A DNA stretch of 64,000 nucleotides from an uncultured Roseivirgaceae bacterium (GTDB lineage: Bacteria > Bacteroidota > Bacteroidia > Cytophagales > Cyclobacteriaceae), in assembly GCA_964551335.1 (NCBI GenBank), contig CAZKCO010000025.1:12134-76133 (forward strand), read 5' to 3'. The notes under the pieces are model-generated. The model saw only the letters and a list, made by a program, of their open reading frames with translations, was not told the DNA's origin and did not search any database. Below are positions 9,271 to 44,804 of the stretch, piece after piece. Position 1 is the first letter of the stretch; each line of letters begins with the position of its first letter. A program made the translations under genes and the position numbers.

Positions 9271-9288
9271 CGTGAATTTAAACCGCTT

Positions 9289-9834: not shown

Positions 9835-11031
9835 ATGTCACTGCGAGATCGTATTCAGTACCTGGCCCGGGAACGCGCGGATCAGGTCATAGGCTTTCGT
9901 CGCCATTTGCACCAGCACCCCGAGCTTTCTTTTCAGGAATATAACACAGCCCGCTACGTTGCCGAACAGCTTAGCGCTTTCGGCCTGTCCCCCCAAACCG
10001 GGATTGCTGATACCGGTATAGTAGCTACTATCGAGGGAAAGAATCCTACCAGAAAAACAGTTGCCCTGCGTGCCGATATGGACGCCTTACCGATTCATGA
10101 GGCCAATAATGTGCCCTATAAATCGCAGAATGAAGGCGTTATGCACGCCTGTGGCCACGATGTTCATACATCTTCCCTGTTGGGTACTGCTTACATTTTG
10201 CAGCAACTTAGAGAAGAATTTGAAGGTACTGTTAAGTTGATCTTTCAGCCGGGCGAAGAGCGCTTTCCAGGGGGGGCTTCGCTAATGATTAAAGAAGGAG
10301 TATTGGAAAACCCCAAACCCGACAGTATGCTGGGTCAGCACGTATTGCCGCATCTTCCAGTAGGGAAGGTAGGCTTTCGGGAGGGGATGTATATGGCAAG
10401 TGCCGACGAAATCTACCTGACTATCCGTGGAAAAGGAGGACACGGGGCCATGCCAGAAAATAATATTGATCCAGTGATGATTACTGCCCAGGTGCTGGTT
10501 ACACTGCAGCAAATCATCAGCCGGTCGGCCAATCCTAAAATTCCGTCTGTCCTTTCCTTTGGTAAAGTGATTGCCGAGGGAGCTACCAATGTTATTCCGA
10601 ATGAGGTTTACGTAGAAGGTACTTTCCGCACTTTAAACGAAGAGTGGCGACACAGGGCTCACCAAAAAATCAGGCAAATTGTAAACGGTGTTTGTGAGAG
10701 CTTAGGAGGCTCAGCTGAGGTGGATATTAAAGTCGGCTATCCCTACTTACAAAATAATCCGGAGCTCACCCTGAGAACAAAACAGGCGGCAATAGAGTAT
10801 CTGGGAGAAGAAAACGTGGTAGATCTTGACTTATGGATGGCGGCTGAAGATTTTGCCTATTACACCCACCATATGAGTGCCTGCTTTTATCGTCTGGGGA
10901 CCGGTAATGAAGCCAAAGCAATAACTTCCGGAGTGCATACCCCTACCTTTGATATTGACGAACAGGCCCTGGAAATCGGACCGGGACTCATGAGTTGGCT
11001 TACTATTTCTGAACTGGCAACAATTGGTTAG
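9835..11031 (+). CDS. M20D family amidohydrolase
   Basis: HPELSFQE, RADMDALP, MHACGHD, FQPGEE, EDFA, HTPTF. Confidence 0.92.
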   Translation: MSLRDRIQYLARERADQVIGFRRHLHQHPELSFQEYNTARYVAEQLSAFGLSPQTGIADTGIVATIEGKNPTRKTVALRADMDALPIHEANNVPYKSQNEGVMHACGHDVHTSSLLGTAYILQQLREEFEGTVKLIFQPGEERFPGGASLMIKEGVLENPKPDSMLGQHVLPHLPVGKVGFREGMYMASADEIYLTIRGKGGHGAMPENNIDPVMITAQVLVTLQQIISRSANPKIPSVLSFGKVIAEGATNVIPNEVYVEGTFRTLNEEWRHRAHQKIRQIVNGVCESLGGSAEVDIKVGYPYLQNNPELTLRTKQAAIEYLGEENVVDLDLWMAAEDFAYYTHHMSACFYRLGTGNEAKAITSGVHTPTFDIDEQALEIGPGLMSWLTISELATIG

Positions 11032-11238: not shown

Positions 11239-12201
11239 CATAAATGCTATTCTGCACTTGAAAAAATTTGGTGGCTAAAACTGAGGCTTACCGTCATTCT
11301 TATGACTATATGCTCTCCCATTTGGGCAGTTACTCAGAACTACCGGCTCATTCTTTCCGAAAGTCCCGCTACATCCATTACCATCGGTTGGGAATTAATG
11401 GCTGGTTGTCCGGATACTCAACGGGTCTATTACGACACGGTTGATCACGCCCGGGATACTTCAGCTTACCGCTTTCAAATGCCGATTACTGCTTCTTACT
11501 TTCACCAAGGGATGGAAAATTATTTCAGCACCCTTGCTGACCTGAAACCAGATACTCGCTACTACTTTGTAATTGCCGAGGATGAGGGAATCAGTGATCG
11601 TTTCTGGTTCCAAAGCCTGAGCAATACTTCAAGCTCCTGGAAAGCCCTTTGGACTTCTTCTAATCTTCCTCAAACGCTTTATGATTGGAAAAAGCTAAGC
11701 TCACAGATTGCAGAAAGCAGTTTGGACTTTGTGTTGGCCGAAGGGTTCACTGGCTTAACCAGCGAAAAAGATTGGCGACACTGGATTCAAACCTGGCAAA
11801 AGTCTATTTCTCAATCAGGAAGAATTACTCCGCTGCTTATCGCGGGCAATATTTCCACTGACGTTCAATATTTATTTAATCATTCGAAAAAGCCGGTCAG
11901 TACCTATCGTTTGTCAGCCCATAGCATACTTCTTACCTCTGATGACAATGGAAAGCTAAAAAATCGGAGTTTGAAAAAAATCCAGCCGGGGACATTTGTT
12001 ATTCAGCACACCGCCTTTTCCCCTGTCAAAGAATCAGAAGCAATTAATCTAATTCTCACCTCATCAACCACTGGAGATGATTTTCCCCATCGATTCAATT
12101 ATCCAACAGGGGAAATGATTGTAGAATTATCTTGGATGAATGGTCATTTTAGTATACGGGCGGCCAGCGGAGAAAAAATGCTGGATGTTTTTTCTAACTA
12201 A
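11221..12201 (+). CDS. Purple-acid-phosphatase N-terminal (FN3) domain protein with degenerate metallophosphoesterase domain
   Basis: PATSITIGW, V.YDT, LADLKPDTRYYFVI...SDRFWF FN3/PAP-N motif; no canonical metal-ligand motifs downstream. Start uncertain (alternative ATG 11302). Confidence 0.7.
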   Translation: MLRNCYHKCYSALEKIWWLKLRLTVILMTICSPIWAVTQNYRLILSESPATSITIGWELMAGCPDTQRVYYDTVDHARDTSAYRFQMPITASYFHQGMENYFSTLADLKPDTRYYFVIAEDEGISDRFWFQSLSNTSSSWKALWTSSNLPQTLYDWKKLSSQIAESSLDFVLAEGFTGLTSEKDWRHWIQTWQKSISQSGRITPLLIAGNISTDVQYLFNHSKKPVSTYRLSAHSILLTSDDNGKLKNRSLKKIQPGTFVIQHTAFSPVKESEAINLILTSSTTGDDFPHRFNYPTGEMIVELSWMNGHFSIRAASGEKMLDVFSN

Positions 12202-30992: not shown

Positions 30993-31121
30993 AGCTCCGT
31001 AATATAAAGGTACAAAAGGACAGCAGGTAAAATGTTTTCACTACGACCTAAGCAAATTATTTTCTACTTTCGTCGGTTACGAAGTAGACATGCTCATTAT
31101 CAGTTATTCACCGTATTACCT

Positions 31122-31952
31122 ATGAACTACGAAGGAAATCTTCATAAAATGCAAACTACCTTGGCCGATCCGGTTCAATACACTCTTAAGCTGAATGGAG
31201 AGCTAGTGCATATGAATGATTTTATCGATAAAACCATTACCATAAAATTTGATGGACAGATCAATTGCATTAACTGCGGGCGTTTAACAAAAAAATCTTT
31301 TGGGCAGGGCTTCTGTTATCCCTGTTTTATCAAATCGCCTCAAAATTCAGAATGCATCATTCACCCAGAACTTTGTCGGGCCCATCTGGGAGAAGGGCGC
31401 GATCCGGAGTGGGAGAAAGAACACCACCTGAAACCTCACATCGTATATCTAGCTCAAACTGACGTAATAAAAGTGGGAGTAACCCGCGACACCCAAGTAC
31501 CAACTCGATGGATTGACCAGGGTGCCTGGAGGGCGGCACCGATCGCGCAGGTACCCTATCGCTCTCTGGCGGGAGGTATTGAGGTAGCATTAAAAGCGTA
31601 CTTCACCGATAAAACCAACTGGCGAAATATGCTAAAAGACGAGACCAACGATGAATTAGACTTGGATGAATATCGACACAGCGTTGAAAATCAACTACCA
31701 GAGGAGTTTCAAAAGTACTACAAGACTGATACTCCAGTGACTGAAATTCATTACCCAGTTTTGGCTTACCCAAAGAAAGTAAAGAGTGTGTTGCTGACCA
31801 AGCAACCAGAAATTTACGGTCGACTTATTGGAATTCGCGGTCAGTACTTAATTTTTGGCGACGGACGGGTCTTTAATATCCGCAACCATAGCGGATACTA
31901 TATACAACTATCGACGGAGTCGCTGAATACCTCTTGGTCTAATAAAATATGA
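31122..31952 (+). CDS. DUF2797 domain protein
   Basis: C..CG..TKKSFGQGFCYPC, KVGVTR..QVPTRWIDQGA. Start moved to ATG 31122. Confidence 0.85.
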   Translation: MNYEGNLHKMQTTLADPVQYTLKLNGELVHMNDFIDKTITIKFDGQINCINCGRLTKKSFGQGFCYPCFIKSPQNSECIIHPELCRAHLGEGRDPEWEKEHHLKPHIVYLAQTDVIKVGVTRDTQVPTRWIDQGAWRAAPIAQVPYRSLAGGIEVALKAYFTDKTNWRNMLKDETNDELDLDEYRHSVENQLPEEFQKYYKTDTPVTEIHYPVLAYPKKVKSVLLTKQPEIYGRLIGIRGQYLIFGDGRVFNIRNHSGYYIQLSTESLNTSWSNKI

Positions 31953-32248: not shown

Positions 32249-33625
32249 TTAGTTCGTTTGGGCCTCGGTCAGCTTTTGTTTTAGCTCTTCTATCTGAGTT
32301 TGGTATTCACGTTCTTTGCGGTGCATCTCTTCCTGAGTAGCTTGCAACTCTTCCATATTCTGCCGCATCTCTTCTTCTTGAGCTCGCATCTCCTCACTCT
32401 GCTCTTGGGCCTGCTCCAGCAAATGTTGAGTCTGTTGCATCACTCGCTGACTCTGAATATAAGCTGCCATTACTTCACCCAAACGTTCTAGAAATTCTAT
32501 CTCATGCTCCTCGAAGTTACTAAAGCTAGCTAGCTCCAAAAGCCCTTCTACCTCTTCGTTTACTATCAAAGGCACGATAATTAGTGAAGTAGGAGTAGCT
32601 TTTCCCAACCCTGAGGTAATGTTCACGTAATTAGGGGGAATTTCCGTGAAATGTAAGTATTTAGCTTCCAGGAAGGCTTGACCAACTAGACCTTCACCGG
32701 GTATAATCGTTTTCTCAATATACTTCTTTCGCTCATAGGCGTAGCAAGCCGCCAGTTGAATTGTAACTTCATCATCGCTGCTATCTACGACAAATAATCC
32801 ACCTTGATTGGCCTTCAGGTATTTGACTGTCGCTGAGATTAGCTGGTCAAACAGGTTTTCTTTACTGCCGGTATGTCGAACGATTTCAGAGATTTGAGCA
32901 ATACCTTCGGCCGCCCACTGCCGCTTACGCTCTTCGGCTTGGGCAGCTTCTAGCTCTTTAGTTTTTTGGGCATTCTCTTTTTGTTGTTTTAGCAATACTT
33001 GGTTACGTTGCTCTGCTTCTATCCGAGACTGCTCACTTTCTTTTTCAGATTGTCTCGTAATAAATATCATGCCCATTACACAACCAAATCCACCAAGAAT
33101 AGCTAGTGAAATTGTAACCGTGCTAAGCCATCCGCTTCGTAAAGGTGTGGAGTCATAAACAGAAGTATACCAAGTTTTTGTGATTGGAAAAGTAAGGATG
33201 ACAATTGAACATAAAATTATTGTAGACAATATAAAAGTCCGTTCGCGAGAATCAAAGATAACAAAGGGTATCAGCGCAAAGCTTAATTCAATTAGGTACA
33301 GACTTGGCAGAGGATCGTCGGCTGCCCCACTCAATGCAGCATTATAAGAAGCACCGAGAATGATTGGAACAATTGAAATGATTAGCCGAGAATATTTTAT
33401 GCCACCTAGATGATTAGCCCATATACATCCCAAACTCACAATGGCCCCACCTATGGGAAAAACTACCAAAGACGGAAAGTAGAACAGCGTTATAACTGTA
33501 AAAGGAATAGCAATGACAGTAGCTAAAGTGAATGCAACGATATTTGTCGGTTGCACCCTCTTTTTAATATAGTCAGGTAGATCGTCATGTAAACCGGCTT
33601 CTACAATACTTCTAAATACTGACAT
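32249..33625 (-). CDS. Membrane sensor: ~6-TM N-terminal domain, GAF domain and coiled-coil tail
   Basis: TM region; ANQGGLF, ACYAYERKK, GEGLVGQ, ITSGLG..P GAF; QSEEMRAQEEEMRQNMEELQATQEE tail typical of Cytophagales GAF proteins. Confidence 0.85.
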   Translation of the reverse strand: MSVFRSIVEAGLHDDLPDYIKKRVQPTNIVAFTLATVIAIPFTVITLFYFPSLVVFPIGGAIVSLGCIWANHLGGIKYSRLIISIVPIILGASYNAALSGAADDPLPSLYLIELSFALIPFVIFDSRERTFILSTIILCSIVILTFPITKTWYTSVYDSTPLRSGWLSTVTISLAILGGFGCVMGMIFITRQSEKESEQSRIEAEQRNQVLLKQQKENAQKTKELEAAQAEERKRQWAAEGIAQISEIVRHTGSKENLFDQLISATVKYLKANQGGLFVVDSSDDEVTIQLAACYAYERKKYIEKTIIPGEGLVGQAFLEAKYLHFTEIPPNYVNITSGLGKATPTSLIIVPLIVNEEVEGLLELASFSNFEEHEIEFLERLGEVMAAYIQSQRVMQQTQHLLEQAQEQSEEMRAQEEEMRQNMEELQATQEEMHRKEREYQTQIEELKQKLTEAQTN

Positions 33626-33929
33626 GTTTGAGTTTATTTAATAATATTAAGCCCAAAAATGCCATACTAAATGGAAAAAAACTTGCAACAATTGCAATAT
33701 ATCTCTCTAGTGTGCGATAAAGATTTTTTTTATAGAAAGTTGAAAATTAAACTCAAGAAAATGCGGAAAAAAACACTAGATACCAGTGAAGTTGAAGCAG
33801 AAATAGGAGAAAAACTATATCAAACGGCGCCACTGACCTTTATCGATAATAAACCAGTTAATCAGCAGCATGGTAATATTCATTCCAGTAATTCATAATT
33901 TGCCGATAAAATAGATTATTCAACCATTT

Positions 33930-34745
33930 CTAACTGCTAGGCTGCTCAAAAATAGAAATGTTTAATCCATCAAAAATCCATGCTGAAGGATAACATTCAG
34001 TCATTTTAGGCAGCACAATTGAACAGATACAATGATTTACCCAAAAGGAAATTGCTTTGTATTGAGTGAAGTTTTTAAAGTAACTCACCGTATAGTTATT
34101 CTTTATAATCAATTGGTTGACCTCATATACATGCAGTGGAGTTGTGAGTCCGGTACCCAGTACCTTAGAAAGAGCTTCTTTGGCTGTCCATATACGAGTA
34201 TAAAAGGACAAATCACTTTCACGGGATTCAGCTCGCAATATCTTTTCAATTGGGGTAGTCATCTGAGCAATAGAATCTAAGCTTTCATTTTTTGGGAATT
34301 CTAGATCTAAACCCATTGGATGCTCCCGCGGAAAAATAATACAGGCCCCAATGCCTCCGGTGTGAGCTAAGCTTATGTTTGGTATGGGGTGTTTGGTATA
34401 ACTGATGAGTGGTTGTCGGAAAATGCCTTTTTCAACTGCGATAGCCTTTATGTCTGTTTCTTCAAGGTAATGAGCTAAAGCGCATTTAGCCGTATACCTA
34501 CTTAACAAATATTGATGCCTCGCTCTTTCGTAGTATAGTTGGTCAAAGTGCTTCTCTTCACTAAGATGTAAATACTGATGCCTATTGCTATTTAAAACGG
34601 AAAAAGGAGGAGAGGCAAATCCTAATAAGGACCTGCCACTCCAGCCACTTCTTTGTAGTGGAATCTGCACTCCCGAAAAGTGTTGCTCTGGAACACTTAT
34701 TAAATGTGCAAAGTCCGAGGAAGCGTTTAACAAAGAATCTTTCAC
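33930..34745 (-). CDS. Sfp-type 4'-phosphopantetheinyl transferase
   Basis: YLLSRYTAK, ISLAH, MGLDLE, WTAKEALSK. Confidence 0.9.
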   Translation of the reverse strand: MKDSLLNASSDFAHLISVPEQHFSGVQIPLQRSGWSGRSLLGFASPPFSVLNSNRHQYLHLSEEKHFDQLYYERARHQYLLSRYTAKCALAHYLEETDIKAIAVEKGIFRQPLISYTKHPIPNISLAHTGGIGACIIFPREHPMGLDLEFPKNESLDSIAQMTTPIEKILRAESRESDLSFYTRIWTAKEALSKVLGTGLTTPLHVYEVNQLIIKNNYTVSYFKNFTQYKAISFWVNHCICSIVLPKMTECYPSAWIFDGLNISIFEQPSS

Positions 34746-34829: not shown

Positions 34830-35468
34830 CTAAACGCTACTGTATAACTTTTCCGACAGCTCGACACCATTGACTTTTTTGACCTCGCTGACCTGTTCGC
34901 TTTTACCTAAGCTAATCAATGCAGCTCCTGCAACAGCAATCACTACGGCGAAAAAGTAAGTAAGCGGACTCAGAATACTTTCTCGGTAAACATCTGCGTT
35001 TACTTCCGGAGCGTCTAAGAGTACGTTTAGCCCCTGCTGCCCTAAAATAATGGCATAACAGATGGCCAATGTAGCGATCAATTCACCTTTCTCTTTAAAA
35101 TCATACAGCAAGAATGGAATAATGCCCATCGCAAACTGAGAGAGATACAATGAAGTGATAACATGCTCTCCTGGTTGTATGGCGTAGGCGTGAAATAAAG
35201 TAGTAAACAATAACATCTGGAATGAACAGATAAACCTTGCAATGGCAGTTGCCCCGTAAAAGTTAAGAGCCAAAACTACGAGCGAGCCTACCAAACAGCC
35301 TAACGGATAGATTACTAATGAAGGAAAGTATAAATACAAAATACCGGAGTATATTACTCCAATTAAGAGGGTCAACAACGCTACCATATTGGTTAGTCGG
35401 ACCTTTCGCTTATGATTGGTGGACATAGCAGAGTCAACACCTAATGTCAATAAATTCATAATTAACAA
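34830..35468 (-). CDS. Stand-alone ~6-TM protein paralogous to the N-terminal membrane domain of the GAF sensor
   Basis: Shared blocks with 32249-33625: K.V..TN.VA, YFPSLV, SLYL, IPF...D..E. No cytoplasmic output domain. Confidence 0.8.
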   Translation of the reverse strand: MLIMNLLTLGVDSAMSTNHKRKVRLTNMVALLTLLIGVIYSGILYLYFPSLVIYPLGCLVGSLVVLALNFYGATAIARFICSFQMLLFTTLFHAYAIQPGEHVITSLYLSQFAMGIIPFLLYDFKEKGELIATLAICYAIILGQQGLNVLLDAPEVNADVYRESILSPLTYFFAVVIAVAGAALISLGKSEQVSEVKKVNGVELSEKLYSSV

Positions 35469-35500: not shown

Positions 35501-35544
35501 CGTAAAGGGAGGGTAGTATTTTCACACCACCCTCTAGCTTTACG
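35501..35544. other. Intergenic stem-loop directly after the PKS stop codon
   Basis: CGTAAAG-G-GAGGGT...ACCCTC-TAG-CTTTACG inverted repeat; no strong U-tract. Confidence 0.55.
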
Positions 35545-35545
35545 A

Positions 35546-38500
35546 TTATTTAGTTTGAACTAACGATAAGGTGTCATCCTTCATAGCTTGGGTAAGCCGC
35601 TCTAGAACTAACTCTCGGTTACGACTCAGGAACCAATGGTCACCTTCTACCACTTCTAAGGTAAATTCCGAGCTGGTTTGAGCTTCCCACTGACGAACTT
35701 CGTCTACTAACACTACTTCATCCTGTGTAGCGGCAAAGGCGGTGATAGGACAATGCAATTTCTCCAGCTCCTCGTAGCGATAGCTCATAATCAGCGGCAT
35801 ATCCTTCCGCATCACCGGCAGAATACGCTTCAGGAATTCTACATCATCAATATAGTTCATCAAGGATAGTAATCGCTCCTCCGAGTTGGTTTCTACCGCT
35901 GTTTGGCTGATAACATCCCTCTCTTTCCACTTAAGGGTTAGCTGAGGTGCAATAGTACCAGTGATAAACAGGTGCTTGGCTTCAATACCATACTGTGCCC
36001 GAATATACCGGATCAGCTCAAAGCCAACCATACCTCCGAAGCTATGCCCCATGATGATAAACGGTTTATCTAAATAAGGACGAATTACCTGAGCCAAATC
36101 AGGAATCAGCTTGAGCATATCCTCATAGGGCTCTTCGCCACTACGGTTCTCCCGCCCCGGCAACTGGAAGGCTAACACATCAGTATTCTCAGGAGCATTG
36201 TAGATGAAGTGACTGAACATGGATGCTCCCGCACCTACCGGATGGAAACAGAATACTCGTTGCTTTACATCCTGCTGATTTCGCTTATTGCGCACTAGCC
36301 ATTTTCCTCCAACTACTTCAATATCTGCTTCGCTCGCAATTCCTGATGCATCAGCATTACCAGCTTCTGACGACTGCTTGTTCACTACAGTTTCGGTCAA
36401 TTCTTCTAGGAGTTGCTCAGCCAGCTCCATCAGGCTCGGCCCTTTGGCAATTTTCATGAGCGGGAAATTCACTTCCAGCTTCTGCTGAATCCAGTTCCGT
36501 AGCTGATTCAGCATCAGAGAGTCCAGCCCCATCGCCGATATAGAAACATCGGTTTCAATCTGATCAACGGTGGCCCCTAAAATTTTAGCCAGAGATTCGG
36601 CCAACAGGCTCCGCAGTAGTGGCACCTGTTGATCTTCAGCCGCATTTTTAACTTGGTCGGCTAGGGTAGAATTACTGTTACTTCCCCCGCCCTGCTGGGC
36701 TTCTTCCAGAAAATGAGCAAAACGTACATCCTGTTGTAAATGTGAGAAGAAACTTCTAAATCGTTGCCAATCCAAGTTCGCCGCCATTCTAACGGCTGGT
36801 TGCTGCAACAATACAGTTTCTATTTTCTGGGTAACCTGGGTTAAAGAAAGTGGCAACCAACCCTGATTCGCCAGTACATTCAGTACGTTCCCCCCCTCTT
36901 TAGACATTCCGGCGTACATTCCCAACACACCCAGGTTGATCGAAGAGCCTGCCAATCCTTGAGACTGGCGATACTGAGCCAAACGATCCAAGAAGTTGTT
37001 AGCCGAAGAGTAGTTCGACTGCCCAGGTAAACCAAATAGTGAGGATATTGAGGAAAGTGAGAGGAAAAAGTCCAGCGATGCATTCTGAGTTGCCTGATGT
37101 AAATTCCAAGCTCCCAACACTTTTGGACGAAATACTTTCATAAATCGCTCAGTATCTGTGTTCATAAGGGTAGCATCATTGAGTACGGCCGCACTGTGGA
37201 TGATACCCTTCAGCGGAGGTAAGTGCTTCTCAATGTACTCAACCACTCCATTTACTGCCCGGCTGTCGGTAATGTCCAGATTCATGGGGTACAGTTCTAC
37301 CCCCTGCTGTTTCAAATTCTCCGCAATTTGGAAGTCTCCCTGATGCTTATAGCCACTTCGACTTAATAGTACTAATCGTCTAGCGCCTTTCTCAGCCAAC
37401 CATTGGGCTAACATCAAACCGAACCCACTAGCGCCACCGGTAAGCAGGTAAGTAGCATCAGCACTAAGCTCTAGCTCCTGAGCCGGAAGTACTTCAATTT
37501 CATCATCGGTCTGCATAGTCACCACCAGCTTACCGATATGCCCTCCTTTGCTAAGTACCCGTAGGGCATCTGCCAATCGAGAAACCGGATAAACCTGATG
37601 AGGATGAACCGATAATTGCTGTTTGGTAAACAGGCTAACTACTTCCTGATACAGCCGCTTAGCCAGTTTAGGCTTCTGAAGCATCAACCGATCAACATCT
37701 ACGGCATGATACGATAAGTTTTCGCCGAAGCGCTTTAAAGCCAGCTTTGTGTCCTGGTATATATCTGCTTTACCAATCTCGATGAATCGACCAAAAGGTG
37801 CCAAACACTTAATGCTCTGGGTGATACCTTTTCCTGAAAGTGAATTCAGCACGATATCAACTCCTCGTCCTTGAGTTGCCGATCTAACCTCGTCGGCAAA
37901 TTTCAGGCTACGCGAGTCAAAAACATGTTCAACTCCTAATGAGCGCACAAATTTGCGTTTTTCTTCGGTACCGGCCGTGGCAATAATATTGGCTCCCGCT
38001 AATTTTGCTAAGCGGATTGCAGCGATTCCTACCCCTCCCGAAGCAGCATGGATCAAGACAGTATCATCTTCGCTTAACCGGGCCAGATAATTTAATGAGT
38101 AATAGGCAGTCAGGTACGCCACAGTAATGGTAGCCGCTTCTTCAAAGGAAAGATTTACGGGCTTTTTCACCACGCAGGAAGCCGGAGTCACTGTAAATCC
38201 CGCGTAGGAATTAGCCGCCCAAGCCATTACCTCATCGCCTTCAGCAAATTCGGTGACATTTTTACCTACTCGGCTGATCACTCCTGAACATTCCAATCCG
38301 AGATTTTTGCCGGCTATACCTCCCTGCACTGCTTCATCGTTAAGCAGCCCCATCACATTCATAATATCCTTGAAATTTAATCCGGCCGACCGAACTTCAA
38401 TTTCTACCGAATCGTCAGCCAATTCAGCACTAACCACTTGACGGAACTCAATACCATCCAGGGTGCCGTACTCCTTCACTGATGCTCGATAAGCTTTACC

Positions 38501-41500
38501 CCGAGCCGAGCAGGTTATAGTAGCTTGTTGCTCAGCCGATTCTTCGGTTACTGCCTGTAGTTTACGAACCAGCAACTTACCGTGTCGTAGGGCAACTTCT
38601 GGGTAGATTGGCTTTTCGACTAGAGTAAAGTTCTCGTAGAGTGTCTCAATCTCGACCTTATTTACTTTCGCCGACAAATCTACTAGACTGGTCTTAATAA
38701 AAGGAAACTCGTTCATCAAAACCCGCCCCATTCCGTAGAGTGCTGCTTGATTGATGTTAACAACTTCTTCATCAACAATACGGTCGGCACCTTGAGTAAG
38801 CAGATATAGTCTTGGTTCACTTCCGTGATTAACAATAGCTCTAAGTGCATTAGTGGTAGCCTCCGCTAACGCTTCTTGTTGCTCGTCTAGAGCCTTCAAC
38901 GAAATTTCCGGATCAAATACACTATCTAATCCCCAAAGGTACATTACCCGACGTACTTTGAAGCCTTTGCGGGTTACTTCGGCCAGTACCCGTTCAATAT
39001 CCTCCTGAGATGAAGGATTCACTCGGAAGTGAGTTGAAGAAAGCTCTTCGTAGCTCGCTCCTTTTTCAACTAGCATCGGAAGCAGATTATCACCGCTAAA
39101 TTTCTCTAGCAGGGTCTGAGTCACCCCCTGTTGATCAACGAACAGCAGGCATCCTCCGGTAGCATCGCCATTCACTCGGGTCATCGCAGTTGGCTCCGAA
39201 GTTTCGGGAGCTTTTTCCCATGTATAGGCGTACATTCCGCGATATAATTCGTTAGCCGACTCTCCTCTAGAACCCTCGATGTATTTACAGGTTAGTCCCT
39301 GAATTTCAGCGACTAAGGTTCCGTCTTCGTTCAAAATAAAGTAGTCTCCTCGCAAATTGGCATCACTAGCTTCCGTTACACGGATATAACTCCAAATCTT
39401 GGTGTTGGGCTTGCTGTGAAGTTTAAACCGCTGGATATAAACGGGTAAATAGATCCCACGTTTTTCACCCTCTCTGCTTTCTTTCGCCGCAAAAATAGCG
39501 TGCAATGAAGCGTCTAATAAAGCCGGATGGAAACCGTACTCTTCAATTCCGTGATGCAGATTCTTGCTGAGTTTGATACCGGCCAGAATCTCGCTATCCC
39601 CTTTCCACAATTGCTGAATACAACGGAATGCTTCTCCGTACTGAAGCCCTCCCTCTTTGAGTTCAACGTACAGGTTGGAAACTGAAACGGTTTCGGTAAG
39701 CCGCTCCTGAATTTCGGGTAAATTAACCGATGAAGATATGAATGAGTCACCTAAATGATTCATCACTCCTCGGGAATGCATCGTCCAGGGAGTATCATCT
39801 CCTTCGCCCTTGCTAAAGATACGGTAACTCCCTTCATCAGAAGCCACCTCCAGTCGAATGTCCATTGACTCACCTTCGTCTGGTAGAAAAAGTGCCGACT
39901 CAAAGTGAATATCTTCTAAAAACCCGAATGATTCACCAAATGAAGACTTTGCCGCGGCAAATGCTACTTCTAGGTGCCCGGTTCCCGGATAAATAACGGT
40001 ACCGTCTACTTTATGATCCTCGATATAGGGATGCACTTTCGTATCCAGCTGCAACTTCCAAATAAAATGGTTAGGATTGGCTGCCGAACGCTCTACACTA
40101 GATAAATGCGGGTGAATCACTTCGCCTAAACGTTCGTTGGCATGTTCAGGAACTTCAAACCAGTAGCGTTCGTGCTGCCAGGAGTATGCCGGAAGGTCCA
40201 CTAACGCCCCGTTCGGGTTTAGCTGCTTCCAATCAATACAATAGCCCTGAGTAAACAACATTCCTAGCGACCCCATCAGAGTAATTGCTTCATCTTCTTT
40301 TCGGCGCAAGGAGGGGACAATAAACGCCGCTTTAACAGATTTGGCTTTCAGTAGATCATTCGCCCCGATGGTTAGCACTGGGTGGGGAGCAATTTCAATG
40401 AACGTATCAAAACCATCGTCGGCCATCCGTGCCAGAGCATCAGTGAAGTAGACTGGCTCCCGTACGTTTTGGTACCAGTAGTTACTATCCAGATGTGACC
40501 CATCCTCTTGCTTACCGGTTACTGTGGAGTACAACGGAATAGTAGCTTCGCTAGGCTCCAGATGATCTAGTGATTCAATTAGCTCTGCTTTTAGCGGCTC
40601 CATATGGTGACTATGGAACGGGACATTAACCCTTAAAAAACGACAGAAGACATCTTTCTGCTCCAGTTGCTGAGCAATTTTCTCCAGCGGTTCTGAATCT
40701 CCCGAAAAGGTCAGCATGTTGGGACCGTTGATTGCTGCAATGGATACTACATCCTCAAAACCTATAATTGCCTCGCGAGCCTCTGCTACCGTAAGGGCAG
40801 CAGCCAGCATCTTGCCTTTCCCGGTAGCTCGGTTTTGCCCCCGGCTACGATGATAGATCACTTCTACCGCCTGGTCAAGCGTTAACGATCCACTGGCATA
40901 GGCGGCGGCCACTTCTCCAATAGAATGTCCTACACAACCTTCGGGAGTTACTCCCCATGATTTCCAGATTTCGGTAAGTCCGATCTGCACCGCCATGATA
41001 GCCGGTTGAGCAATCCTAGTTTCGCTTACCCGGGAAGTAGCTTCATCCCGGCTCATTTCTTCCAGCAACGACCAATCAGCTAACTGCTGGAACCGCTGGT
41101 CAATCTGTTCAATTACCTCTCGGAAAATAGACGAAGATTCAATTAACTGCTGCCCCATGGCATACCATTGAGGCCCCTGACCCGAAAAGATGAAACCTAA
41201 CTTAGGCTTATGACCTTTTTTTGCCTTCTGCTCGAACATGCCTGGCCGGGTTTCTTCCCCAAGATAGGCCTCAAGTTTTTCCCGAAGTTCTTCTTTGGTT
41301 CGAGCAGCCACAGAAAGTCGATAATCAAGTGCTGAACGGCGGGCTCCAGCACTGTAACAAATATCTGACAGGGAATTAGGTGTGTTCCCCAAATACTCAA
41401 CGTACTGGGTGACATTATCCCGGAGCGCTTCTTTAGTTTGAGCTGATACGGTAAATAATTCTACCCTTTCGGCTTCACTTCCACCGGAAATATCCTTCTT

Positions 41501-42901
41501 AGATTTAGTTTGCGGTTGATAAGCCTGTAATACAGCATGAGCATTAGTTCCACCCGCTCCGAAGGAGTTAACCCCACCAATAATAGGGTGTCCGTTTTGA
41601 GGTAAGTCAACCAGTTCGGTTGGCACTTGCAAGCGATAATCGTCAAAGGGAATCTTTGGGTTTGGATTCTCGAAGTGTAGGTTTTGGGGAACCTGCCTAT
41701 TTTTCAATACCAGTGACAATTTGATCAGACCAGCAATACCGGCGGCAGATTCTAAGTGGCCTATATTGGTTTTTACCGAACCCATCCAGCATTTTTCGTT
41801 CTCAGAACGGTTTTTACCAAATACTTCGCCGAAGGCCCGCGTCTCAATTGGGTCACCTACAGGAGTACCCGTTCCGTGGGCTTCAATGTAGGCTACGTTT
41901 TTTGGGTCTACTCCAGCCTTTTCGTAAGCAGTTTCCAGCATCGCTACCTGAGAAGAAAAACTCGGAACTGTAAAACCTTCTTCGGTATGACCATCTTGAT
42001 TCACGGCAGTTCCGAGAATAGTGGCGTAGATATGATCACCATCAGCCTCTGCTCTCGATAGCGGCTTGAGCATAACAACTCCGCAACCCTCACTACGAAC
42101 GTAACCATTGGCACGGCTATCAAAAGTTTTGCAATAGCCATCAGGAGACAGAAAATTACCCTTCGACATCATGATCGACGACTCAGGGCGAAGCAAGGCA
42201 TTAACTCCACCGGCCAAGGCTTGGTCGCTCTCGCCTGACCAGATACTCTGACAAGCCAGATGCACCCCCACAAGAGAAGAAGAGCAGGCCGTATCTAGGC
42301 TAACGCTAGGGCCTTTTAGGTTATAAACGTAAGAGATACGGTTGGCAATGGCGGTAAGCGAAGACCCCATCGGTACGTGGGGGGTAATGGCGTTACGCTG
42401 CTCGGTTGAGACTTGAATATCCCAGTAGTCGTTCATAAAAACACCCATAAATACCGCCGTTTTGGTGTCAGATACAGATTCCATCGGAATTCCAGCATCT
42501 TCTAACGCCTGGTAGGTTACCTCCAGCAGCATTCGTTGTTGCGGATCAATGCATTGGGCTTCAGCAGGAAACATACCAAAAAATGCAGGATCAAAGTGAC
42601 TTATATCTTTGACAAATCCGCCTTTTTTGTTCTTAATTTTACCAGCCTTATTGTTATCCGGATCGTAAAATTTTTTCAAATTCCAACGATCGGGCGGCAC
42701 ATCGGTGATGGCGTTTTTTCCTTCGGAAAGCAATTTCCAGAAAGACGATGGATCATTCACTTCGCCCGGGAAGCGACACCCAATGCCAACAATGGCAATG
42801 GGCTCGCGAGGATTGGTAGAATCATCCTTCCGGGTGGAATCGTTCTCTACAGACACAGCTGTCGCAGGAACACCATGGGTGGGGGCACTAAATGTAGACA
42901 T
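35546..42901 (-). CDS. Single-module highly reducing type I PKS (KS-AT-DH-ER-KR-ACP-TE)
   Basis: KS DTACSSS/HGTGT/NIGH; AT GHSIG/VPFHS; DH HKVDGTVIYP and HPALLD; ER LIHAASGGVG; KR GGASGFG/HSAAVLND/YSSAN; ACP GLDSL; TE GHSFG/GDHW. Confidence 0.95.
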   Translation of the reverse strand: MSTFSAPTHGVPATAVSVENDSTRKDDSTNPREPIAIVGIGCRFPGEVNDPSSFWKLLSEGKNAITDVPPDRWNLKKFYDPDNNKAGKIKNKKGGFVKDISHFDPAFFGMFPAEAQCIDPQQRMLLEVTYQALEDAGIPMESVSDTKTAVFMGVFMNDYWDIQVSTEQRNAITPHVPMGSSLTAIANRISYVYNLKGPSVSLDTACSSSLVGVHLACQSIWSGESDQALAGGVNALLRPESSIMMSKGNFLSPDGYCKTFDSRANGYVRSEGCGVVMLKPLSRAEADGDHIYATILGTAVNQDGHTEEGFTVPSFSSQVAMLETAYEKAGVDPKNVAYIEAHGTGTPVGDPIETRAFGEVFGKNRSENEKCWMGSVKTNIGHLESAAGIAGLIKLSLVLKNRQVPQNLHFENPNPKIPFDDYRLQVPTELVDLPQNGHPIIGGVNSFGAGGTNAHAVLQAYQPQTKSKKDISGGSEAERVELFTVSAQTKEALRDNVTQYVEYLGNTPNSLSDICYSAGARRSALDYRLSVAARTKEELREKLEAYLGEETRPGMFEQKAKKGHKPKLGFIFSGQGPQWYAMGQQLIESSSIFREVIEQIDQRFQQLADWSLLEEMSRDEATSRVSETRIAQPAIMAVQIGLTEIWKSWGVTPEGCVGHSIGEVAAAYASGSLTLDQAVEVIYHRSRGQNRATGKGKMLAAALTVAEAREAIIGFEDVVSIAAINGPNMLTFSGDSEPLEKIAQQLEQKDVFCRFLRVNVPFHSHHMEPLKAELIESLDHLEPSEATIPLYSTVTGKQEDGSHLDSNYWYQNVREPVYFTDALARMADDGFDTFIEIAPHPVLTIGANDLLKAKSVKAAFIVPSLRRKEDEAITLMGSLGMLFTQGYCIDWKQLNPNGALVDLPAYSWQHERYWFEVPEHANERLGEVIHPHLSSVERSAANPNHFIWKLQLDTKVHPYIEDHKVDGTVIYPGTGHLEVAFAAAKSSFGESFGFLEDIHFESALFLPDEGESMDIRLEVASDEGSYRIFSKGEGDDTPWTMHSRGVMNHLGDSFISSSVNLPEIQERLTETVSVSNLYVELKEGGLQYGEAFRCIQQLWKGDSEILAGIKLSKNLHHGIEEYGFHPALLDASLHAIFAAKESREGEKRGIYLPVYIQRFKLHSKPNTKIWSYIRVTEASDANLRGDYFILNEDGTLVAEIQGLTCKYIEGSRGESANELYRGMYAYTWEKAPETSEPTAMTRVNGDATGGCLLFVDQQGVTQTLLEKFSGDNLLPMLVEKGASYEELSSTHFRVNPSSQEDIERVLAEVTRKGFKVRRVMYLWGLDSVFDPEISLKALDEQQEALAEATTNALRAIVNHGSEPRLYLLTQGADRIVDEEVVNINQAALYGMGRVLMNEFPFIKTSLVDLSAKVNKVEIETLYENFTLVEKPIYPEVALRHGKLLVRKLQAVTEESAEQQATITCSARGKAYRASVKEYGTLDGIEFRQVVSAELADDSVEIEVRSAGLNFKDIMNVMGLLNDEAVQGGIAGKNLGLECSGVISRVGKNVTEFAEGDEVMAWAANSYAGFTVTPASCVVKKPVNLSFEEAATITVAYLTAYYSLNYLARLSEDDTVLIHAASGGVGIAAIRLAKLAGANIIATAGTEEKRKFVRSLGVEHVFDSRSLKFADEVRSATQGRGVDIVLNSLSGKGITQSIKCLAPFGRFIEIGKADIYQDTKLALKRFGENLSYHAVDVDRLMLQKPKLAKRLYQEVVSLFTKQQLSVHPHQVYPVSRLADALRVLSKGGHIGKLVVTMQTDDEIEVLPAQELELSADATYLLTGGASGFGLMLAQWLAEKGARRLVLLSRSGYKHQGDFQIAENLKQQGVELYPMNLDITDSRAVNGVVEYIEKHLPPLKGIIHSAAVLNDATLMNTDTERFMKVFRPKVLGAWNLHQATQNASLDFFLSLSSISSLFGLPGQSNYSSANNFLDRLAQYRQSQGLAGSSINLGVLGMYAGMSKEGGNVLNVLANQGWLPLSLTQVTQKIETVLLQQPAVRMAANLDWQRFRSFFSHLQQDVRFAHFLEEAQQGGGSNSNSTLADQVKNAAEDQQVPLLRSLLAESLAKILGATVDQIETDVSISAMGLDSLMLNQLRNWIQQKLEVNFPLMKIAKGPSLMELAEQLLEELTETVVNKQSSEAGNADASGIASEADIEVVGGKWLVRNKRNQQDVKQRVFCFHPVGAGASMFSHFIYNAPENTDVLAFQLPGRENRSGEEPYEDMLKLIPDLAQVIRPYLDKPFIIMGHSFGGMVGFELIRYIRAQYGIEAKHLFITGTIAPQLTLKWKERDVISQTAVETNSEERLLSLMNYIDDVEFLKRILPVMRKDMPLIMSYRYEELEKLHCPITAFAATQDEVVLVDEVRQWEAQTSSEFTLEVVEGDHWFLSRNRELVLERLTQAMKDDTLSLVQTK

Positions 42902-43463: not shown

Positions 43464-44804
43464 CTATCTAATTAAGGACTTTGCCAATATCTTTCGTAAA
43501 TACCAGAAAGAAATTAGGGCACCGAGTAGATAACTAAGAGCAATTCCTATAAAAATACCGGCAATGCCACCCAGAAAGGAACCTAAGTAGGCCAAAGGGA
43601 GGTACAAGACAAACATCTGTATAGCCGAAATAACGAAAGCTGGCAATGGCTTGCTCATCGTATTCAAGCTGGCGTTCCCAATCAAATATATTCCTTGGAA
43701 ACCAAAGCTGAGTGGAAGAATCGTTAAGTAAAGTGAAACTTTCTCGACTACCGGCTGACTATCGGTAAAAATCCGGGCTACAGGCTCAGCCAGTAACCAG
43801 AGCACCAGAGCTGCTAGAGCACCCCACAGCAGGGAAAAGCCACTTCCGAAAGTAATTGACTCCCGAATTCTTCCCCAAGCGTTTTTTCCTACATTTTGTC
43901 CAATGAAAGGAGCAATAGCCGCCGAAAGCGCAAAAAAAACACTGGTACCCAATACTTCAATCCGACTGCCTACTCCGAACGCAGCCACAGCGTCAGGGCC
44001 ATAAGTGGCTAATAATGCAGTAGCCCCTCCTACCGCCAGTGGTACGATCATCCGGGAAATGCCAGTAGGAAGGCCAATGTACAAAATAGCCCGCCAACAG
44101 CCCATCAGCACCGATCTGGAAGGAATGTCAAAGGTAATCAGTCGCTCGCGGTATCGGAGAATGTAGAGAGAAACTAGCAGGGTTAGCCCTCGGGAAACAG
44201 CGGTTGCTAACGCAGCTCCCTGAAGCCCAAGAGCAGGGACCTGCCCCCAGCCAAAAATCAGTAAGGGATCTAGGACTGCATTGATGAGCACGGCAAAAAG
44301 CATGATATAACTAGGAGTCTGGGTGTCGCCGGTTGCCCGAATAGCACTATTGCCAACAAAAGGTACGATTACGAAGAGTATAGTAAAATACCAAATCTCC
44401 ATGTACTCACGTACTAGCGGCAACACTTCTGGCCCTGCTCCCAGCGCAGTAAATAAAGGATTGATGGTAGAAAGCCCAATAAATACACAGATCAGAACTA
44501 ATATGATGGCAAGAAACAGACTGTCCGTAGTTTCCCGAGCTGCTTTACCCAAGTCATTTCTGCCGAACGACTGAGAGATAAGGGCGGTAGCCCCAATTCC
44601 AATTCCTTGTACCAAGCTAAAAATTACCATAATTACCGGAAAGGTAAAGCTCAAAGCAGCCAGTTCATTTTCTCCCAGTTTTCCGATAAAGTAGGTATCT
44701 ACCAAGTTGAAACCCACCATGCTCAATATCCCCACCACCATCGGCAACGTTAGTTGAAATAGAGTGAGTGGAACGGAGCCCTGGGTTAAGTCCTTACGCT
44801 TCAA
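43464..44804 (-). CDS. MATE family efflux transporter
   Basis: NLVDTYFIGKLG, RATGDTQTP, LDPLLIFG, GLQGAALAT; about 12 TM helices; TTG start. Confidence 0.92.
   Translation of the reverse strand: MKRKDLTQGSVPLTLFQLTLPMVVGILSMVGFNLVDTYFIGKLGENELAALSFTFPVIMVIFSLVQGIGIGATALISQSFGRNDLGKAARETTDSLFLAIILVLICVFIGLSTINPLFTALGAGPEVLPLVREYMEIWYFTILFVIVPFVGNSAIRATGDTQTPSYIMLFAVLINAVLDPLLIFGWGQVPALGLQGAALATAVSRGLTLLVSLYILRYRERLITFDIPSRSVLMGCWRAILYIGLPTGISRMIVPLAVGGATALLATYGPDAVAAFGVGSRIEVLGTSVFFALSAAIAPFIGQNVGKNAWGRIRESITFGSGFSLLWGALAALVLWLLAEPVARIFTDSQPVVEKVSLYLTILPLSFGFQGIYLIGNASLNTMSKPLPAFVISAIQMFVLYLPLAYLGSFLGGIAGIFIGIALSYLLGALISFWYLRKILAKSLIR

Follow-up and report, generated by a model that had tools for sequence, protein, structure and literature searches.

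Within a 64,000-nucleotide stretch of DNA from an uncultured Roseivirgaceae bacterium (contig CAZKCO010000025.1 of assembly GCA_964551335.1, positions 12,134 to 76,133; hereafter the window), a minus-strand gene at 34830..35459 encodes a stand-alone six-helix membrane protein of 209 residues, the short protein, directly downstream of a type I polyketide synthase (PKS) gene. We show that this short protein is a complete, selectively maintained member of a six-helix membrane family, and that its clade has kept the conserved residues of the family. Because it is confined to genomes that encode this PKS, the short protein probably belongs to a lipid-sensing or lipid-handling circuit and is not a broken gene. 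New here are a recurring cassette of PKS, 4′-phosphopantetheinyl transferase (PPTase) and a membrane-anchored GAF protein (TM-GAF), the location of the short gene, in six genomes of the window's genus and on two metagenome contigs, between the PKS and PPTase genes, and its co-occurrence with the PKS in 12 of 12 genomes. We tentatively favour the view that the short protein, itself without an output, is a receptor for the PKS lipid and acts on signalling proteins encoded by other genes.

The open reading frame (ORF) at 34830..35468 on the minus strand is intact and, counted from the listed TTG start at 35468, encodes 212 residues. The ATG at 35459 is the likelier start because the orthologues and the database copy P0001 (209 residues) begin with MNLL. 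BLASTP alignment of the short protein with the 458-residue TM-GAF, encoded on the same strand at 32249..33625, revealed 31% identity and 58% positives over 124 residues (E = 6e-18; residues 20-142 against 21-144), and a profile of the short protein, TM-GAF and a third paralogue from the same genome aligned all three over approximately residues 1-200. An earlier reading, made from the sequence alone, had proposed homology to the first ~200 residues of the GAF protein; the proposal is confirmed at an E value that is not negligible, and the aligned strings it quoted are present in the alignment. Six membrane helices are predicted from hydropathy and in an AlphaFold 2 (AF2) model, with a basic stretch (KRKVR) preceding helix 1. 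The positive-inside rule and the cytoplasmic domains of the long forms suggest that both termini face inwards (N-in/C-in), in keeping with the cytoplasmic location of GAF in the long form. The AF2 models of the short protein (predicted local distance difference test (pLDDT) 94.9, predicted TM-score (pTM) 0.88) and the long form (pLDDT 93.1, pTM 0.68) have an identical helix layout. Helix 6 is an 86-residue run into the GAF domain in the long form and a ~20-residue stub in the short form. The stand-alone nature and clean end described by the sequence-only reading hold: a TAG stop follows ~20 residues past the sixth predicted membrane helix, and Pfam detects no GAF domain in the short protein.

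Using a profile built from the three-sequence alignment that includes the short protein and TM-GAF, an exhaustive search of 1.84 billion cluster representatives (E ≤ 0.001) returned 427 relatives as cluster representatives, mostly of 450-680 residues; a word-indexed homologue search returned only the short protein itself and one 94% copy. The profile scores of the short protein (E = 7.6e-91) and its neighbour (E = 1.1e-98) in their own genome are partly circular, since both sequences are in the profile, and the independent evidence for family membership is the pairwise BLASTP match. Architectures were counted in 151 sequences, comprising 150 of the 427 relatives (the matches listed) and the query's own P0001. 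A GAF-coiled-coil C-terminus was present in 101 of these, and 29 longer members without it include 15 with HisKA/HATPase, seven with REC and four with SpoIIE domains; PAS domains also occur. Outputs joined to the module in relatives thus span GAF-coiled-coil regions, histidine or hybrid kinases, PAS-kinases and SpoIIE phosphatases. A signature of G7, N24, P52, N66, R75, P115, D120 and E123 is 84-100% conserved in 134 long members and is present in full in the short protein of the window, and under the predicted topology its polar residues would cluster at the cytoplasmic face. The window's genome encodes a further family copy, a 506-residue TM-GAF on contig C32, and two proteins whose N-terminal membrane parts are distantly related to the module. 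One is a 520-residue putative histidine kinase on contig C23 (L009 1393-2955; membrane part E = 0.002), the other a 436-residue putative nucleotide cyclase on contig C33 (L005 721-2031, minus strand; membrane part E = 0.5), both functions being read from sequence.

Given that relatives carry signalling outputs and that Pfam, NCBIfam and the PDB offer no match, the module is a genuine but uncatalogued six-helix membrane input domain. For the short protein, hmmscan against Pfam found only Sensor_TM1 (E = 0.026, 14.7 bits against a cut-off of 26.6), and NCBIfam contains no membrane family that matches it. Twenty-nine long relatives matched no Pfam membrane family at E ≤ 0.001. Fourteen short-clade members searched at E ≤ 5 gave scattered weak Pfam matches, among them DAGK_prokar in 5 of 14 (best E 0.014); the DAGK_prokar matches lie below any threshold and were taken as compositional. 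The MASE-type assignment offered by the sequence-only reading is accordingly not supported, as no member reaches any Pfam membrane-sensor family. A sequence-profile search of the PDB with the module gave no matches, and the best Foldseek match of the module model in the PDB had an E of 0.64, with TM-scores reaching at most 0.33, the hits being G-protein-coupled receptors and designed helical bundles. Members of the family come almost exclusively from Cytophagales, and for the most part from Cyclobacteriaceae as defined by GTDB: the module is present in 75 of 401 genomes of that GTDB family and in a few other families of the order, and an even phylum-wide sample of 301 genomes gave one weak match besides the window's own genome. 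In the literature we found no description of this domain or of a PKS-PPTase-TM-GAF cassette, nor of a fatty acid synthase-like reducing type I PKS of this kind in Bacteroidetes/Cytophagales.

The sequence-only reading had set an output-less short protein against a GAF sensor. Its description of the short protein stands, but TM-GAF is likewise without a recognisable enzymatic output, because Pfam sees only the GAF domain (residues 256-391; GAF_2, E = 2e-12, 47.9 bits against a cut-off of 28.6) and the AF2 model shows only long flanking helices, of 86 residues before the GAF domain and 85 residues at the C-terminus. The GAF fold itself is matched by Foldseek to many GAF structures with a probability of 1.0, and the Pfam scan detected a kinase domain in neither family protein of the window. 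The C-terminal helix of TM-GAF bears a near-invariant motif, QEEEMRQNMEEL..ATQEEM. Located at 32249-32440 of the window and outside every Pfam family, it reads EE(M)RAQEEEMRQNMEEL.ATQEEM across 76 family members, in which E417, E418, E419, R421, Q422, E425, E426 and A429 are at least 90% conserved. This ATQEEM motif may be the output or interaction site of TM-GAF.

Complete stand-alone ORFs of 191-219 residues, ending soon after helix 6, were found in ~12 species and four metagenome clusters. In what follows, G-numbers denote genomes, G000 being the window's own, and L-numbers denote loci or contigs. Carriers comprise six species of the window's genus (G000, G004, G003, G015, G012 and G002), Splendidivirga corallicola (G018), Marinoscillum pacificum (G405), Reichenbachiella agariperforans DSM 26134, an Ekhidna metagenome-assembled genome (MAG), G030 and G422. 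A maximum-likelihood tree of 171 membrane domains places the 13 short-clade rows in one clade (SH-aLRT support 99) nested among long forms, with GAF-type proteins of 453-454 residues as sisters. On this topology, the output part was lost once, long ago, in the short clade. The membrane domain of the neighbouring TM-GAF falls in the other main half of the tree, and the stand-alone gene is therefore not a recent copy of its neighbour. This placement rules out a recent tandem copy and leaves the local duplication envisaged by the sequence-only reading unsupported. Independent stand-alone forms also exist, namely a 204-residue protein of G018 in another branch and frames of 204-208 residues in G021 and G030.

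A decaying fragment or annotation artefact, in which the gene would be a truncated, functionless remnant of a receptor, could be read from the missing output domain and from the long branch of the window's protein and its G004 orthologue, which are 41-44% identical to the G003 orthologue where the PKS is 81% identical. Selection argues otherwise. By the Nei-Gojobori method, dN/dS of the short gene is 0.041 between G000 and G004 (dS 0.73) and 0.055 between G015 and G012, comparable values being 0.042 for the PKS (G000/G004) and 0.053 and 0.066 for TM-GAF (G000/G004 and G015/G012, respectively); the PPTase has 0.129 (G000/G004). For the short gene, dS ranges from 0.73 to 1.8. The same ORF length recurs across the ~12 species and four metagenome clusters, the AF2 model has a pLDDT of 94.9, and the family signature is intact. 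With dN/dS of 0.04-0.06 and conserved ORF length, a recent truncation or pseudogene is ruled out, and we regard a dead gene as highly improbable. The sequence-only reading had looked to dN/dS below 1 in other genomes as a sign of a conserved stand-alone form and to longer orthologues as a sign of recent truncation; the first was found and the second was not.

Within the short clade, R75 is retained in 100% of members, N24 and E123 in 93%, N66 in 79% and D120 in 43%, and the clade has its own conserved residues (Y37, S59, Q81, M82, H90, M111, C134, Q141, N145 and Y168). The C-termini end in V/L-L-N in G003, G015, G012 and G018, in LYSSV in the window and in VYSSV in the G004 orthologue, and may represent a short interaction motif. 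The short proteins of G000 and G004 lie on a long branch (0.84) and share 41-44% identity with the G003 orthologue. Between G000 and G003, identity is 81% for the PKS, 67% for TM-GAF, 44% for the short gene and 41% for the PPTase; that the short gene and the PPTase are so much more diverged points to rapid evolution, or else to a cluster whose middle part has been replaced.

In the window, the PKS, short gene, PPTase and TM-GAF form a row of four minus-strand genes. The PKS (35546..42901, 2451 residues) is a single-module, iterative and fully reducing enzyme with the Pfam order ketosynthase, acyltransferase, dehydratase, enoylreductase (ER), ketoreductase, acyl carrier protein and thioesterase (TE). 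Its stop lies at 35546. As the sequence-only reading had stated, the next gene is the short gene, at a distance of 86 nucleotides (nt). The Sfp/HetI-type PPTase (33930..34745; Pfam and NCBIfam) follows after 84 nt, and TM-GAF, with the six-helix module at residues 1-200, after a further ~300 nt. This row is kept in G000, G004, G003, G015 and G012. G002 has a PKS lacking the ER followed by the short gene and TM-GAF, its PPTase being close by on the opposite strand, and metagenome contigs carry PKS-short-PPTase (L036) or PKS-short-TM-GAF (L039, L040). The spacer from short gene to PPTase measures 6-84 nt overall (6-46 nt in orthologous loci), and TM-GAF follows after 200-470 nt. TM-GAF lies 0.4-1.4 kb from the short gene in G000, G004, G003, G015, G012, G002, G018 and contig L039.

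The cassette also occurs on its own. PKS-PPTase-TM-GAF is found without the short gene in G032, G077, G250, G188, G148, G256 and G155, variant orders occur in G014, G007 and G030, and the cassette without the short gene was seen in at least 10 further genomes from ~6 genera (loci L053-L060, L064 and L067). In G011 a 495-residue family gene lies directly 3′ of the PKS, and G004 encodes a second PKS with a 480-residue family gene ~1 kb downstream. Overall, the basic unit is PKS, PPTase and TM-GAF, and because the cassette recurs without it, the short gene is an insertion in one genus and related metagenome contigs.

The link between short gene and PKS extends beyond adjacency. Orthologues of the PKS, taken as sequences with 49% identity or more across the C-terminal 700 residues, were identified in 25 of the family's 401 genomes. 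All 12 short-clade genomes carry a PKS orthologue, including six in which both genes are unlinked. One-sided Fisher tests, uncorrected for shared ancestry, gave p = 3e-8 by genome (6/6 sampled carriers PKS-positive), p = 2e-5 by genus (5/5 genera, with 17 of 132 genera PKS-positive) and p = 0.01 within the window's genus (6/9 PKS-positive against 0/7 PKS-negative genomes). The whole membrane family is likewise associated with the PKS (20/25 PKS-positive against 55/376 PKS-negative genomes, p = 7e-12). Of the 25 PKS-carrying genomes in the family sample, 19 lack the short gene, and four of these 19 lack the membrane family altogether. Marinoscillum pacificum encodes the short protein but not a single long member, and additional family matches in G422, Reichenbachiella and Ekhidna are weak or short only. 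By this pattern, what regularly accompanies the short gene is the PKS and not a long paralogue. Because Marinoscillum has no long paralogue, pairing with TM-GAF cannot be the sole role of the short protein; the heterodimer with the GAF sensor proposed by the sequence-only reading may apply at the window locus and is weakened as a general role. Of the other suggestions in that reading, a decoy or ligand sink and a product chaperone or self-protection factor may each apply, and the data do not tell them apart.

In the mechanism that we favour, the six-helix module would serve as a receptor in the membrane, recognising either the hydrophobic product of the PKS or a state of the membrane brought about by that product. 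The short protein would share this ligand and, since it lacks an output, would work on signalling proteins encoded elsewhere, the TM-GAF paralogue here and neighbouring kinases and response regulators elsewhere, through contact within the membrane or competition for ligand. Because the short gene would be co-expressed with the PKS and PPTase genes, the amount of short protein should track expression of the synthase, and the protein could thereby tune or feed back on the receptor. Homology to TM-GAF, the shared helix layout, the retained signature and low dN/dS, the signalling relatives, the TM-GAF and kinase neighbours, the PKS link, the FadL/TodX channel at the Splendidivirga locus and the tight spacing to the PPTase gene, set against the wider gap and hairpin before TM-GAF, all support this mechanism. 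Several observations weigh against it. The membrane domain of the supposed partner belongs to the other half of the tree; Marinoscillum has no long paralogue, and G422, Reichenbachiella and Ekhidna offer only weak or short family matches; no signalling gene was recognised adjoining the short gene in Reichenbachiella or on contigs L037 and L038; shared ancestry may inflate the co-occurrence statistics; and the position within a biosynthetic operon, tightly before the PPTase gene, fits a biosynthetic or self-protection role equally well.

Such a role is the main, if somewhat doubtful, alternative. Here, the short protein would receive, shield or flip the product, help to export it or protect the membrane from it, and would have no signalling partner. 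Gene order speaks for this idea, as the short gene comes first after the PKS with the PPTase 6-84 nt on (six genomes and contig L036) and is also post-PKS on L039 and L040. It is also perfectly nested within PKS-carrying genomes, including those without a long paralogue, and many short-clade residues are polar (Y37, S59, Q81, H90, C134, Q141, N145 and Y168) and located in or beside predicted helices, which would fit a binding pocket. A putative efflux gene upstream of the PKS in the window's genome is a further point in favour; this gene (43464..44804, minus strand) encodes a polytopic membrane protein of 446 residues, read by eye as MATE-type. At the corresponding position 5′ of the PKS, G015 has a near-identical ORF and G004 a related one that starts later, and tblastn detected no copy adjoining the PKS in 19 other genomes checked. 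The family context points the other way, since all other branches consist of N-terminal input modules of signalling proteins and long forms surround the short clade in the tree. The protein also matches no transporter or enzyme family in Pfam or NCBIfam. In six genera the short gene lies apart from the PKS, beside kinases or regulators in three of these. Moreover, with the short gene missing from 19 of 25 PKS-carrying genomes, the PKS does not need the short protein. Lipid handling explains the operon position and the strict dependence on the PKS as well as the favoured mechanism does, but not the signalling nature of the family or the unlinked copies adjacent to kinases.

Among these unlinked copies, the short gene of Marinoscillum is accompanied on the same strand by genes for a 765-residue sensor kinase and a soluble REC-HATPase protein; in G030, by an NtrC-type regulator and a kinase; and in G422, by a PAS-HisKA-HATPase-REC protein. 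A 777-residue gene lies directly downstream of the short gene in Ekhidna. Splendidivirga presents a single-strand row (L032 10219-15331) of a 204-residue module, a 429-residue FadL/TodX protein, the 219-residue short-clade protein and a 466-residue TM-GAF. The 204-residue module comes from a different branch of the family than the 219-residue one, FadL/TodX is an outer-membrane channel for hydrophobic compounds, and PKS-PPTase is encoded on another contig (L061).

The same neighbourhoods invite the proposal that the short protein is an autonomous sensor subunit, which passes a membrane or lipid cue unrelated to the PKS product on to soluble kinases and regulators as non-homologous partners. 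Signalling would proceed through the conserved polar face, predicted to be cytoplasmic, and the place in the PKS row would be a regulatory convenience, as for a PKS cluster controlled by an external cue. Consistent with this proposal, a soluble REC-HATPase protein, a PAS-histidine kinase-REC protein, and an NtrC-type regulator with a histidine kinase stand on the same strand in three genera; N24, R75 and E123 on that face are still 93-100% conserved although the stalk is gone; and stand-alone forms arose more than once (204 residues in G018, 204-208 residues in G021 and G030). However, it would reduce both the 12/12 co-occurrence with the PKS and the 20/25 versus 55/376 enrichment to coincidence or shared ancestry, and several loci show no recognisable partner. 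We therefore consider a PKS-independent subunit distinctly unlikely, and both it and a dead remnant are less likely than either the output-less receptor that we favour or lipid handling.

A more ambitious version of the output-less receptor can be framed in which PKS, PPTase and TM-GAF constitute a lineage-specific lipid-signal synthase/receptor system, and the short protein is a co-receptor without output that sets its sensitivity. Such a system would serve quorum-sensing-like communication or membrane-state sensing in marine Cytophagales. At loci where the sensor is not linked to the PKS, or has a FadL-type channel in its stead, the short protein could permit the sensing of a lipid made elsewhere. 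As a whole, this scenario seems unlikely.

Further features of the locus concern its transcription and setting. An 11-pair hairpin with a weak T tail (35509..35534, minus strand) within the 86-nt spacer that separates the short gene from the PKS stop may act as an attenuator or as a partial terminator. A second hairpin followed by TTTTTTT (33774..33788, minus strand) lies within the ~300-nt spacer between PPTase and TM-GAF and suggests that TM-GAF is a separate transcription unit; terminator-like sites in the region are no more numerous than in shuffled sequence. A sigma-70 promoter scan was set aside as carrying no meaning in Bacteroidota. A plus-strand gene at 31032-31952, convergent with the GAF gene, encodes a 306-residue DUF2797 protein (E = 1.6e-89). 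In G004, G015 and G012 this gene remains syntenic with the cluster, as do hemA and a gene for an NAD-binding protein, and the cassette therefore occupies a fixed chromosomal site in part of the genus.

The PKS itself varies among genomes. It lacks the ER region in two species of the window's genus, G002 (L035 10845-17120) and G007 (L059 9486-15737), as judged from query residues ~1450-1810 missing from the tblastn alignment, and its product would therefore be less reduced in these genomes. In three MAGs, in-frame stops or a frameshift break the PKS frame near the TE (L031 of G015 at ~9271-9284, L033 of G012 at ~10743-11014 and L035 of G002 at ~11537-11583), which could be assembly errors or a real split into a separate TE gene.

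To our knowledge, dedicated cell-to-cell or lipid signalling systems are poorly defined in Bacteroidota. The present data tie an uncatalogued input domain to one lipid-type PKS, through gene order in more than 17 genomes and presence or absence in ~400, and the interest lies mostly in this wider PKS-sensor association. The tie makes a synthase/receptor hypothesis testable in cultivable Marinoscillum, Reichenbachiella and Splendidivirga. The stand-alone form is a natural separation of a sensing module from its output, handy for ligand-binding and structural work, and may exemplify a bacterial receptor whose response is tuned by a copy of its sensor domain that has no output. If lipid handling or detoxification proved true, a sensor module would have taken on a new role as an accessory to biosynthesis.

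Integral-membrane input domains of bacterial signalling proteins are represented in Pfam by MASE1-type domains, 5TMR-LYT and 7TMR-DISM_7TM. The six-helix module resembles these as a polytopic N-terminal unit with conserved polar residues that is joined to varied outputs (kinase, phosphatase, GAF and, distantly, cyclase) by a long extension of the last helix. In contrast, the module family reaches none of their models, has six helices and its own signature (G7, N24, N66, R75, P115, D120 and E123), is practically limited to one order and has no structural relative in the PDB.

Pairs of a lipid autoinducer synthase and a six-helix membrane receptor include CqsA/CqsS, which use cholera autoinducer 1 (CAI-1), LqsA/LqsS, and RpfF/RpfC, which use diffusible signal factor (DSF). 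The cassette resembles them in that a gene for an enzyme with a putative hydrophobic acyl product lies beside one for a polytopic receptor, a likeness to CqsA/CqsS or RpfF/RpfC that we offer as a working analogy and not as homology. CqsS, LqsS and RpfC are histidine kinases, whereas the linked receptor here ends in a GAF domain and a coiled coil; similarly, the synthase here is a 2451-residue reducing PKS, unlike the pyridoxal 5′-phosphate-dependent transferase or crotonase of those systems. We know of no output-less copy of the receptor's membrane domain in the CqsS, LqsS or RpfC systems. The short protein itself can be compared with MgrB, SafA, MzrA and LiaF, small membrane modulators or accessory subunits of sensor kinases, and with the decoy receptors of eukaryotes. 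By analogy with these, an output-less membrane protein could tune a receptor through contact or ligand competition, from a co-regulated operon. MgrB, SafA, MzrA and LiaF are not homologous to the sensor domains that they target, whereas the short protein, as a candidate modulator, is a full copy of the sensor module.

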